From NCBI RefSeq assembly GCF_057098645.1, contig NZ_CM169472.1: a DNA stretch of 64,000 nt. One strand, written 5' to 3'. The translations under genes and the position numbers were made by a program. Below the pieces are notes generated by a model that was not told the origin of the DNA, ran no database searches, and saw only the letters and a list, made by a program, of their open reading frames with translations. Below, piece by piece: positions 2,862 to 52,622 of the stretch; within the stretch, counting starts at the first letter, position 1, and each line of letters starts with the position of its first letter.

Positions 2862-3067
2862 CGTTAATTATCCGCAGTTGTGATAAGCGCAGTGTATTTC
2901 GCAAAACATTGCCATTCCCTGCTCTGGCGCAATATTCATTCTTATTTTCGCGTTGATTCACGAACTGTTAATTACATATTCACGGTGGCAAAAAATATAA
3001 AACCACATTTTTAGTGGTAGTTTGTGGCGGTGAATTTTTCCAGACAAATACAAAAACTGGAGTTGCC

Positions 3068-3979
3068 ATGATGAGCGAAAGTAATAAGCAACAGGCAGTG
3101 AATAAGTTGACGGAGATTGTCGCTAACTTTACCGCCATGATTTCTACCCGAATGCCTGATGACGTGGTGGATAAACTAAAACAGCTAAAAGATGCCGAAA
3201 CGTCATCGATGGGGAAAATTATCTACCATACGATGTTCGACAACATGCAAAAAGCGATTGACCTGAATCGTCCTGCCTGTCAGGACACCGGGGAGATTAT
3301 GTTCTTCGTTAAAGTCGGTTCCCGCTTCCCACTGCTTGGCGAGCTGCAAAGCATACTCAAACAAGCCGTGGAAGAGGCAACCGTCAAAGCACCACTACGT
3401 CACAATGCGGTAGAAATTTTTGACGAAGTAAACACCAGCAAAAATACCGGCAGCGGCGTACCGTGGGTCACCTGGGATATCGTCCCCGACGGTGACGATG
3501 CGGAAATCGAAGTTTACATGGCAGGCGGCGGCTGCACGCTACCAGGCCGCTCGAAAGTGTTAATGCCGTCAGAAGGCTACGAAGGCGTGGTGAAATTCGT
3601 CTTCGAAAATATCTCCACCCTCGCCGTAAACGCCTGTCCACCGGTATTGGTGGGCGTGGGCATCGCCACCTCGGTGGAAACCGCCGCCGTACTCTCGCGT
3701 AAAGCCATTTTGCGCCCGATTGGCAGCCGCCACCCCAATCCAAAAGCGGCAGAGCTGGAGCTACGCCTGGAAGAAGGACTCAACCGTCTGGGGATTGGTC
3801 CACAAGGGCTGACTGGCAACAGTTCAGTGATGGGCGTGCATATCGAATCTGCCGCTCGCCATCCGTCAACCATCGGCGTTGCTGTTTCTACCGGCTGCTG
3901 GGCGCATCGTCGCGGCACACTGCTGGTTCATGCCGATCTCTCCTTTGAAAATCTGTCTCACACCCGGAGCGCGTTATGA
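3068..3979 (+). CDS. ttdA: L(+)-tartrate dehydratase alpha subunit
   Basis: ORF-track 3014..3979; likely start at MMSESNKQQ; Fe-S hydro-lyase alpha chain. Confidence 0.85.
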
Positions 3980-48590: not shown

Positions 48591-48736
48591 CTTCCTGTTA
48601 TCCGAAACAGATCACTCACTTTGGTGATTTCACCGTAACTGTCTATGATTAATGAGGCGGTGGTTAACACTACCGCTTCGTTGTCTGGACAATCGTTCCT
48701 TTGTAATAGGTCCGAATCACAATGGAAGGTTCAAGA

Positions 48737-49105
48737 ATGAAATACCGCATCGCTTTAGCTGTTTCTCTTTTTGCTCTTAGTGCCGGTAGTTATGCCACTA
48801 CCCTGTGTCAGGAAAAGGAGCAAAATATCCTTAAGGAGATCAGCTATGCCGAAAAACACCAAAACCAGAATCGTATTGACGGTCTGAATAAAGCCCTGAG
48901 TGAAGTCCGGGCCAACTGTTCAGATAGCCAGCTGCGTGCCGATCATCAGAAGAAAATCGCAAAGCAGAAAGATGAGGTGGCGGAACGCCAGCAAGATTTA
49001 GCCGAGGCGAAGCAAAAAGGCGATGCCGATAAGATTGCCAAACGCGAACGGAAACTGGCAGAAGCGCAGGAAGAGCTGAAAAAGCTGGAAGCGCGCGACT
49101 ACTAA
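48737..49105 (+). CDS. yqjC: DUF1090 periplasmic protein
   Basis: ORF-track 48722..49105; signal peptide MKYRIALAVSLFALSAGSYA, coiled-coil rich. Confidence 0.8.
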   Translation: MKYRIALAVSLFALSAGSYATTLCQEKEQNILKEISYAEKHQNQNRIDGLNKALSEVRANCSDSQLRADHQKKIAKQKDEVAERQQDLAEAKQKGDADKIAKRERKLAEAQEELKKLEARDY

Positions 49106-49142
49106 CTCACAATAGTCACTACTTACTCACCTGGAGAAAACT

Positions 49143-49448
49143 ATGTCGAAAGAACACACTACGGAACATCTGCGTGCTGAGTTGAAATCCCTTTCCGATA
49201 CGCTGGAAGAGGTGCTTAGCTCATCTGGCGAGAAGTCGAAAGAAGAGTTGAGTAAGATTCGTAGCAAAGCGGAGCAGGCACTGAAACAGAGCCGTTATCG
49301 CCTGGGTGAAACCGGTGATGCCATCGCCAAACAAACCCGTGTCGCGGCGGCGCGTGCCGATGAGTATGTGCGTGAAAATCCATGGACGGGCGTGGGCATT
49401 GGCGCTGCAATCGGTGTAGTGCTCGGCGTTCTGCTGTCGCGTCGTTAA
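49143..49448 (+). CDS. yqjD: Ribosome-associated membrane-anchored protein (ElaB/YqjD family, DUF883)
   Basis: 101-aa ORF with C-terminal TM anchor. Confidence 0.8.
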   Translation: MSKEHTTEHLRAELKSLSDTLEEVLSSSGEKSKEELSKIRSKAEQALKQSRYRLGETGDAIAKQTRVAAARADEYVRENPWTGVGIGAAIGVVLGVLLSRR

Positions 49449-49450
49449 TT

Positions 49451-49855
49451 ATGGCGGACACTCATCACGCGCAAGGGCCCGGTAAAAGCGTTCTGGGCAT
49501 CGGGCAGCGAATTGTTTCCATCATGGTTGAAATGGTGGAAACACGTCTGCGGCTGGCGGTGGTGGAGCTGGAAGAGGAAAAAGCTAATCTCTTTCAACTT
49601 TTACTGATGCTGGGCCTGACGATGCTTTTCGCTGCATTTGGTCTTATGAGCCTGATGGTGCTAATTATTTGGGCGGTTGATCCGCAATATCGCCTGAATG
49701 CGATGATTGCCACCACCGTGGTGTTGCTGCTACTGGCACTGATTGGCGGTATCTGGACGTTACGTAAATCGCGTAAATCCACCTTGCTGCGCCATACACG
49801 CCATGAGCTGGCAAACGATCGGCAGCTGCTCGAGGAGGAGTCCCGTGAGCAGTAA
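49451..49855 (+). CDS. yqjE: Inner membrane protein (DUF1469)
   Basis: ORF-track 49382..49855; ATG at 49451 directly after the yqjD stop. Confidence 0.8.
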   Translation: MADTHHAQGPGKSVLGIGQRIVSIMVEMVETRLRLAVVELEEEKANLFQLLLMLGLTMLFAAFGLMSLMVLIIWAVDPQYRLNAMIATTVVLLLLALIGGIWTLRKSRKSTLLRHTRHELANDRQLLEEESREQ

Positions 49856-50144
49856 AGTCGAACGTGAACGACGTAAGGCGCAACTGCTTAGCCAGATCCA
49901 GCAACAACGGCTGGATCTTTCTGCCAGTCGTCGTGAATGGCTGGAGGCAACAGGCGCTTACGATCGTCGCTGGAATATGCTGCTCAGTCTGCGCTCCTGG
50001 GCGCTGGTTGGCAGTAGCGTGATGGCGATCTGGACGATTCGCCATCCTAATATGCTGGTCCGCTGGGCCAGACGCGGTTTTGGCGTATGGAGCGCATGGC
50101 GTCTGGTTAAAACGACCCTCAAGCAGCAACAGCTTCGCGGTTAA
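49845..50144 (+). CDS. yqjK: Small protein, uncharacterised
   Basis: GTG start at 49845 preceded by GAGGAGGAG; overlaps the yqjE 3' end. Confidence 0.7.
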   Translation: MSSKVERERRKAQLLSQIQQQRLDLSASRREWLEATGAYDRRWNMLLSLRSWALVGSSVMAIWTIRHPNMLVRWARRGFGVWSAWRLVKTTLKQQQLRG

Positions 50145-50326
50145 CTTCCCTCTGGCCGGAGCCATTCCGGCCTTACCCATCAAATTTTTTGAAGATTTTT
50201 GACAGTTTTCCTTGCTAACAATCATCATTCACCACGTTTATGATTCTCTCCATCGACAGCAACGACGCTAATACTGCGCCCTTGCACAAAAAAACAATCA
50301 GCAGCCTGAGTGGCGCAGTGGAGAGT

Positions 50327-50791: not shown

Positions 50792-51780
50792 ATGGGTCAA
50801 CTGATTGACGGCGTCTGGCATGACACCTGGTACGATACCAAATCTACCGGCGGTAAATTTCAACGTTCAGCTTCCGCATTTCGTAACTGGCTCACTGCCG
50901 ATGGCGCTCCTGGCCCCACTGGCACAGGCGGTTTTATCGCAGAGAAAGATCGTTATCATCTCTATGTTTCACTCGCCTGCCCGTGGGCGCACCGCACGCT
51001 GATCATGCGCAAACTCAAAGGACTGGAACCGTTTATTTCCGTTTCCGTAGTGAACCCGCTGATGCTGGAAAACGGCTGGACCTTTGATGACAGTTTTCCG
51101 GGAGCAACCGGAGATACGCTCTATCAACATGAATTTCTGTATCAGCTTTATCTCCACGCCGATCCACACTACAGCGGACGAGTTACTGTTCCCGTACTGT
51201 GGGACAAAAAGAACCACACCATCGTCAGCAACGAATCAGCAGAAATCATCCGCATGTTTAATACCGCGTTTGATGCGCTGGGCGCGAAAGCGGGTGATTA
51301 CTACCCACCAGCCCTGCAAACGAAAATTGACGAACTTAAAACGGCTGGATTTATGACACCGTTAACAACGGCGTGTATAAAGCCGGTTTTGCCACCAGCC
51401 AGCAAGCCTACGCCGAGGCGGTGGAAAAAGTGTTTGAATCGCTGGCGCGACTGGAACAGATTTTAGGTCAGCATCGTTACCTGACCGGCAACCAGCTAAC
51501 CGAAGCCGATATTCGCCTGTGGACCACGCTGGTCCGTTTTGATCCAGTGTATGTGACCCACTTCAAGTGTGATAAGCACCGCATCAGCGATTACCTGAAT
51601 CTGTATGGCTTCCTGCGCGATATCTACCAGATGCCGGGAATTGCCGAAACAGTCAATTTCGATCACATCCGTAATCATTACTTCCGCAGCCATAAGACCA
51701 TCAACCCTACGGGGATTATTTCAATTGGTCCGTGGCAGGATCTCGATGAACCGCATGGACGAGATGTTCGCTTCAGTTAA
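50792..51780 (+). pseudogene. yqjG: Glutathionyl-hydroquinone reductase (Xi-class GST) interrupted by a +2 frameshift
   Basis: Two overlapping ORFs (50771..51466 and 51373..51780) in different frames together cover one GST-like protein; in-frame lengths sum to 328 aa; frames swap at CTTAAAACGG near 51338. Confidence 0.7.
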
Positions 51781-52062: not shown

Positions 52063-52380
52063 ATGGACTGGTATCTGAAAGTACTAAAAAATTATGTCGG
52101 TTTCCGGGGTCGTGCGCGGCGCAAAGAGTACTGGATGTTTATTCTGGTCAACATCATCTTTACGTTCGTGCTGGGGCTGCTGGATAAAATGTTAGGCTGG
52201 CAACGCGCTGGTGGCGAAGGCATCCTGACGACAATCTACGGTATTCTGGTGTTTTTACCGTGGTGGGCACTGCTATTCTTAATCCCGTTTATCGGCTGGC
52301 TTATTATCATCGTCTTTAACTGCCAGGCGGGTACGCCAGGCGAAAACCGCTTTGGACCTGATCCAAAACTGGAACCTTAA
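52063..52380 (+). CDS. yhaH: DUF805 inner membrane protein
   Basis: ORF-track 52042..52380; MDWYLKVLKNYVGFRGRARRKEYWMF. Confidence 0.8.
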   Translation: MDWYLKVLKNYVGFRGRARRKEYWMFILVNIIFTFVLGLLDKMLGWQRAGGEGILTTIYGILVFLPWWALLFLIPFIGWLIIIVFNCQAGTPGENRFGPDPKLEP

Positions 52381-52622
52381 AACAAATCTGCTCGCCGGAT
52401 GTCTGACTCATCCGGCTTTTATCATCATGTTGATGAATGAATAATTTACTAATGTTTATTTAAAATATTTCAATGTCGTTATATAAATTACCTATAAAAA
52501 AATAACCATGTATTTATCTTAAATATCAAAACCTTTATAACATCCAAAAAAGAAAGATACGAATAGCATTTACACAATACCCGGAATAGACTTTCGTCAC
52601 TTTTAATTAAAGGGATGTTTTT

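Follow-up and report, generated by a model that had tools for sequence, protein, structure and literature searches.

The curated start codons of yqjD, yqjE, and yqjK are the real ones with a probability that we put at about nine in ten, and the three genes are ordinary and already curated. They lie in a 64,000-nucleotide stretch of DNA, which we refer to as the window, and form the distal part of yqjCDEK, a known E. coli operon that depends on sigma-S. A mechanical list of open reading frames (ORFs) for the window contains longer versions of yqjE (49382..49855, 157 aa) and yqjK (49743..50144, 133 aa), and an earlier interpretation made from the letters of the window (the sequence-only reading) had dismissed both as probably incorrect. 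This judgment is borne out by annotation, by start codons at the homologous position in 83 of 83 loci, by closed upstream frames, by a TAG codon in K-12, by the substitution pattern and, for YqjE, by an N-terminal peptide. The curated K-12 starts of the three genes carry over to the window strain. The analysis adds to existing knowledge quantitative support for these starts and, as a small testable hypothesis, the yqjE junction without a Shine-Dalgarno (SD) sequence.

Organization of the yqjCDEK locus

The window is chromosomal DNA of E. coli. Over positions 49100-50200, its identity to O145:H28 strains is 100%, and a match of at least 95% identity to this segment exists in 5422 of the 5426 complete genomes of the species. 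As annotation references, we used the RefSeq record of a strain with 100% identity and, for K-12 MG1655, its curated record, both of which place yqjD, yqjE, and yqjK at the window coordinates given in Table 1; the K-12 yqjCDEK operon (b3097-b3100; RefSeq/EcoCyc) has the same genes, order, starts, and stops as the window. The sequence-only reading had suggested a check against curated K-12 starts, and its coordinates turned out to be identical to those in the K-12 and PGAP annotations. The yqjE ATG, as read in the sequence, is separated from the yqjD stop codon TAA (49446-49448) by the spacer TT, and the overlap of the yqjK GTG with the 3' end of yqjE matches RefSeq and K-12. The label "overlapping" therefore fits yqjE/yqjK but not yqjD/yqjE, which are merely adjacent.

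The yqjCDEK operon has a sigma-S promoter, is repressed by CsrA, and is transcribed from promoters of yqjC and yqjD, with possible internal transcription start sites (PMC10746276). The mechanical ORF for yqjC begins at 48722, which is 5 codons 5' of its annotated start. A terminator scan returned no terminator-like sites on the plus strand between yqjD, yqjE, and yqjK. Downstream, a 185-nt gap with promoter-like sites at 50199-50244 separates yqjK from yqjF, and a GC-rich hairpin close to the yqjK stop may represent the operon end. The same scan detected no canonical intrinsic terminator after yqjK; the nearest T-run lies ~13 nt beyond this hairpin.

Table 1. Features of the yqjCDEK locus and curated starts of five other genes with over-extended ORFs (window coordinates; energies are those of the anti-SD duplex in kcal/mol)
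Feature	Position	Strand	Description
yqjC (DUF1090)	48737..49105	+	Heads the yqjCDEK operon; annotation; Pfam DUF1090, 118.6 bits
yqjD SD, GGAG	49133..49136	+	6 nt 5' of ATG 49143; -6.4
yqjD, 101 aa	49143..49448	+	DUF883 family, C-tail-anchored, ribosome-associated; annotation, Pfam
Spurious yqjE extension, 23 codons	49382..49450	+	ATG from the yqjD Pro-Trp codons CCA TGG
yqjD-yqjE junction, TAAttATG	49446..49453	+	Stop, 2-nt spacer, start; no SD upstream
yqjE, 134 aa	49451..49855	+	Two-TM inner-membrane protein; Pfam Phage_holin_3_6; TAA stop 49853-49855
Spurious yqjK extension, 34 codons	49743..49844	+	TTG 49743, in-frame ATG 49803; inside yqjE in a different frame
yqjK SD, GAGGAGGAG	49832..49840	+	4 nt 5' of GTG; Glu-Glu-Glu codons of the yqjE C-terminus (…LLEEESREQ)
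yqjE/yqjK overlap, 11 nt, GTGAGCAGTAA	49845..49855	+	yqjK start on yqjE stop
yqjK, 99 aa, GTG start	49845..50144	+	Pfam YqjK family; annotation
GC-rich hairpin GGCCGGA-GCCAU-UCCGGCC	50154..50172	+	10 nt past the yqjK stop; folding
patA	TTG 16053		ORF +37 codons (ATG); curated -5.8, extended +1.7
ebgA	ATG 19192		ORF +51 codons (TTG); curated -10.3, extended -2.3
rlmG	ATG 35485	-	ORF +10 codons (ATG); curated -10.8, extended -5.3; peptide at curated start
uxaC	ATG 44509	-	ORF +21 codons (GTG); curated -6.0, extended -3.3
exuT	ATG 44992		ORF +40 codons (ATG); curated -6.3, extended +0.1

Start codons within E. coli

Across 49000-50250, the window differs from K-12 by 21 single-nucleotide differences. 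YqjD and YqjE are identical in protein sequence to their K-12 counterparts, and YqjK is 98% identical. All of those that fall in YqjD or in the part of YqjE that was compared are silent, whereas in the extension frame they are missense or nonsense. One of them (49810 G>A in K-12) creates a TAG at 49809-49811, 12 codons 5' of the yqjK GTG. Because this codon lies downstream of TTG 49743 and ATG 49803, any K-12 ORF starting at either is truncated; conversely, the G at 49810 in the window leaves the upstream frame of yqjK open and thereby gives rise to the long mechanical ORF. The TAG haplotype is present in 1215 of the 5426 complete E. coli genomes (~22%), and the window haplotype in 4164. At the yqjE extension, K-12 has CCG TGG where the window has CCA TGG, a difference that is synonymous in yqjD and converts ATG 49382 to GTG. 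A rare longer YqjK proteoform from ATG 49803, the frame of which is open in the window and in approximately three quarters of E. coli genomes, is conceivable but improbable in these strains.

Conservation of the start codons across species

We compared 80 orthologous Enterobacteriaceae loci, one per species, together with K-12, RM12761, and the window, giving 83 loci. An ATG is present at the homologous codon of yqjE in all 83. The gap between yqjD and yqjE is 2 nt in 56 loci, 1 nt in 25, and -1 nt in two; because of this variation, the yqjE extension falls into different yqjD frames depending on the species and cannot be a conserved peptide. Moreover, the yqjE frame has no upstream in-frame start in 19 of 83 loci, and it is closed within 4 codons in 13.

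Similarly, the homologous position of yqjK is occupied by a start codon in all 83 loci (GTG in 49, ATG in 33, and TTG in one), and the yqjE stop shifts around this fixed start to give overlaps of 4, 11, 8, or 1 nt or a 2-nt gap. The 11-nt overlap, with yqjE ending in …EEESREQ*, occurs in Escherichia and some Citrobacter, and a 4-nt GTGA/ATGA overlap in most other genera; the difference stems from a 1-nt frame change near the yqjE end, by which the TGA is no longer read in frame and YqjE gains 2-3 residues without any shift of the yqjK start. In 50 of 83 loci, a stop codon closes the yqjK frame at most 3 codons upstream. In Trabulsiella odontotermitis strain 01 (L027, ~2890-3130), the GTGA junction is kept, and yqjK carries a frameshifting deletion after codon 4 compared with a second strain (L037); this yqjK is either a pseudogene or the product of an error in the assembly.

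The stretches that the extensions would share with the upstream genes evolve as single coding frames. Entropies at the three codon positions are 0.23/0.02/1.19 for the last 23 yqjD codons and 0.47/0.24/1.34 for yqjE codons 98-131, third-position variability equals the gene-wide values, and the pattern tracks the codon frame of the upstream gene alone. As third positions have kept their freedom, nothing in these stretches points to dual coding. The Pfam domains begin past the curated starts (residues 19-127 of YqjE and 14-86 of YqjK), and the extensions give no better match. In the yqjK frame, GTG 49845 is the sole start codon between the position of the K-12 stop and the start of the domain.

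Protein-level evidence and alternative starts

N-terminal proteomics, which the sequence-only reading had proposed as a further check, supports part of the picture. In TRAINSPOTTER, an N-terminomics study of E. coli K-12 from 2026 of which we used rows 710-715 of Table S1, YqjD is represented by the N-terminal peptides MSKEHTTEHLR and SKEHTTEHLR together with Ribo-RET and INRI support (PMC13245402 Table S1). YqjE is represented by MADTHHAQGPGKSVLGIGQR and ADTHHAQ…, which place the protein start at MADTHHAQ…, and RlmG by MSHLDNGFR and SHLDNGFR at its curated start (PMC13245402 Table S1). YqjK has no row in this table, and data on its start are likewise absent from the INRI-seq supplements and the Salmonella riboproteogenomics supplements. 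For the yqjK GTG, comparison across loci argues strongly that it is the start.

If the extended ORFs were real, YqjE would have 157 aa (from ATG 49382) and YqjK 133 aa (from TTG 49743) or 113 aa (from ATG 49803), with out-of-frame overlaps of 67 and 113 nt. These ORFs are open in the window, and an ATG or GTG is found 23 codons 5' of the yqjE ATG in most of the loci with a 2-nt gap. However, this upstream codon is a by-product of the conserved Pro-Trp codons of yqjD (CCA/CCG TGG), and neither extended start has an SD. Together with the species-dependent frame of the yqjE extension and its missing starts, the stops just upstream of yqjK and the TAG in K-12 and 1215 complete genomes, the substitutions that are silent only in the curated frames, and the YqjE peptide at the curated Met (PMC13245402), these observations largely refute the extended ORFs, and we consider their translation extremely unlikely. 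The opposite error, in which yqjK would start at ATG 49977 (Met44) to give a protein of 55 aa and the GTG with its SD would be incidental, could draw on the missing TRAINSPOTTER row for YqjK and on the lower conservation of the first 13 yqjK codons compared with the remainder. Nevertheless, those 13 codons keep a third-position bias (0.65/0.69/1.26), the SD of ATG 49977 is weak (-2.4 kcal/mol), and a start at Met44 would leave the Pfam YqjK domain without residues 14-43; in addition, the GTG position holds a start codon in every locus and has an SD of -6 kcal/mol or lower in 67 of 83. A start at Met44 is, therefore, highly improbable, and we retain the GTG.

Initiation at the two junctions

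To rank potential SDs, we calculated anti-SD duplex energies for every ATG, GTG, and TTG triplet of the window, 5946 in total. The sequence-only reading had pointed to GAGGAGGAG in front of the yqjK GTG, and this SD, with an energy of -11.8 kcal/mol, ranks among the top 0.08% of all triplets and is thus not a chance match; SDs of the GGAGG type account for the 67 loci mentioned above. The upstream candidates TTG 49743 and ATG 49803 have energies of -1.5 and +1.9 kcal/mol. The yqjD SD reaches -6 kcal/mol or lower in 82 of 83 loci. For yqjE, the energy is +1.1 kcal/mol in the window and at or below -6 kcal/mol in none of the 83 loci, and ATG 49382 of its extension also has no SD (+0.3 kcal/mol). 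Both gene pairs, being on the same strand with a 2-nt gap or an 11-nt overlap and no terminator in between, have the geometry of coupled pairs. This geometry is kept in 83 of 83 loci, in which yqjD-yqjE distances range from -1 to +2 nt and yqjE-yqjK have an overlap of 1-11 nt or a 2-nt gap.

Based on this anatomy, yqjD would be initiated via its own SD. Because the yqjE ATG is 2 nt past the yqjD stop and has no SD, we lean toward the idea that ribosomes finishing yqjD re-initiate and translate yqjE. The yqjK GTG, with its strong SD formed by Glu codons of yqjE, could be loaded by terminating ribosomes and de novo alike. The long ORFs arise solely because a mechanical finder takes the first ATG, GTG, or TTG after a stop; they run out of frame through the upstream gene and are not translated as such.

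Alternatively, with the curated starts unchanged, yqjE initiation takes place de novo and independently of both yqjD and an SD, e.g., through the A/U-rich UAAUU and ribosomal protein S1, possibly on an internal transcript. The 5 nt before the yqjE ATG are indeed A/U-rich, SD-independent initiation is described as common in E. coli (PMC7043885), and transcription start sites predicted from RNA-seq lie upstream of yqjE and yqjK (PMC10746276); transcripts from such sites would need de novo initiation of yqjE. However, TRAINSPOTTER gives yqjE neither a proxy SD nor evidence from Ribo-RET or from INRI, which reports de novo initiation in a cell-free system, while both kinds of evidence are listed for yqjD and most neighbors (PMC13245402 Table S1). 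Also, the yqjE ATG is at most 2 nt from the yqjD stop in 83 of 83 loci despite varying stop identity and spacer, which is the expected signature of re-initiation. We consider de novo initiation a possibility to be taken seriously, if not the probable course, and continue to favor re-initiation after yqjD.

As in classical translational coupling (the ATGA/TAATG type, by termination-reinitiation), stop and start are a few nucleotides apart or overlap on one strand, and the SD of the downstream gene is within the upstream gene, as for yqjK, or absent, as for yqjE; the putative coupling described here is deduced from this geometry. Unlike in classical coupling, no conserved start-masking hairpin was found at yqjD/yqjE. 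A candidate from the E. coli fold (CGUCGU/AUGGCG, with the stop in the loop) was absent from the RNAalifold structure of 75 sequences, was paired in 70.7% of cells, equal to shuffles, and showed no compensatory change. Since a start-occluding hairpin is not conserved, coupling by the classical opening of structure is unsupported. Folding z-scores of the whole segments at the two junctions were unremarkable (-1.46 and -1.70).

We also entertain, as a doubtful extension of re-initiation, that YqjE might be made solely by ribosomes fresh off YqjD. The YqjD:YqjE ratio would then be hard-wired, YqjK would follow via its overlapping start, and YqjD, YqjE, and YqjK could assemble in fixed stoichiometry into a membrane complex by which hibernating ribosomes are anchored or regulated. 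For the locus, the junction offers a modest, testable idea about the joint expression of YqjD, a ribosome-hibernation factor, and its partners.

The encoded proteins and their relatives

YqjD matches Pfam DUF883 (PF05957; 49.5 bits, cut-off 25.4) and, with its glycine-zipper tail, DUF883_C (PF19029; 57 bits, cut-off 27). By hydropathy, residues 80-100 of its 101 form a single TM/hydrophobic segment, i.e., a C-terminal tail anchor. For K-12 YqjD, which is identical in sequence, ribosome binding or inactivation has been reported (bioRxiv 10.1101/2024.08.16.608256). YqjE has two TM segments (45-78 and 80-105) and scores 75.8 bits against Phage_holin_3_6 (PF07332; cut-off 28.4). A function as a phage holin was considered and rejected: the gene is not in a prophage lysis module beside an endolysin or spanin gene, and the neighbors yqjC, yqjD, yqjK, and yqjF are chromosomal core genes found in 5422 of 5426 E. 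coli genomes, so that "holin" is a family label only. YqjK matches PF13997 over the entire model (1-73 of 73; 88.3 bits, cut-off 28.1). Its hydrophobicity is borderline, with a maximal Kyte-Doolittle value of 1.35 over 19 aa. Accordingly, the description of all three genes as membrane-protein genes in the sequence-only reading agrees with the TM segments of YqjD and YqjE, while for YqjK it rests on the literature.

Genes for DUF883, YqjE-like, and YqjK-like proteins travel together across Pseudomonadota (bioRxiv 10.1101/2024.08.16.608256; PMC11302039). In Pseudomonas aeruginosa, PA3040-PA3042 (DUF883, YqjE-like, and a small hypothetical protein) form a three-gene cassette like yqjDEK, in which less than 15 bp separate the ORFs; stationary phase and envelope stress both induce it (PMC11302039). 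Unlike that of YqjD and YqjE, overexpression of PA3040 or PA3041 is not growth inhibitory (PMC11302039).

Over-extended ORFs elsewhere in the window

The sequence-only reading had suspected the same problem in patA, ebgA, exuT, uxaC, and rlmG, and rightly so: the listed ORFs exceed the curated starts by 10 to 51 codons (Table 1), and the curated lengths are the same in K-12. Because the window is not collinear with RM12761, genes were mapped by BLAST. Mechanical extension was found in 21 of the 57 window genes checked, including yqjC, yqjF, yqjG, exuR, ttdA, and tdcF. An ORF track built on the first start after a stop thus over-extends approximately a third of the genes in the window and provides no evidence for long gene overlaps.

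In patA, a rare TTG start follows GGAG, and an in-frame ATG 37 codons upstream has no SD. The K-12 and PGAP annotations and the SD point to this TTG as the probable start. Samsonova et al. reportedly cut the patA annotation from 496 aa to 459 aa by experiment in 2003.

Additional observations in the window

Downstream of the yqjCDEK operon, yqjG (50792-51780), which encodes a glutathionyl-hydroquinone reductase, has a 2-bp AA insertion at 51338-51339 compared with RM12761 (CTTAAAACGG vs CTTAACGG). The resulting frameshift follows …KIDEL, and the ORF stops at 51466 instead of encoding 328 aa; yqjG is either a pseudogene in the window strain or affected by a sequencing error in the A-run. Also compared with RM12761, yhaH (DUF805) has a 48-bp in-frame deletion at 52258/52259, and 1 bp is inserted at 52496 in the yhaH-yhaI spacer. 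The yhaH stretch has no exact match in the complete E. coli genomes; the best match has 99.8% identity and is in two pieces.

Between ygjK and fadH, a gene of 1545 bp at 28090-29634, annotated as "hypothetical protein," is shared with O145:H28 RM12761; in K-12, the ygjK-fadH gap is ~425 nt and contains no annotated CDS. Finally, a complete IS2 of 1331 bp (IS3 family; 32654-33984) is inserted in higB, the toxin gene of the HigB-HigA pair, and this insertion junction was present in 0 of the 5426 complete E. coli genomes searched. The element carries orfA (33528-33938) and orfB (32665-33570), both on the minus strand, and has a 5-bp target duplication, CCTAG, on its two sides (32649-32653 and 33985-33989). 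The gene for the antitoxin, higA (32001-32417, minus strand), remains intact.
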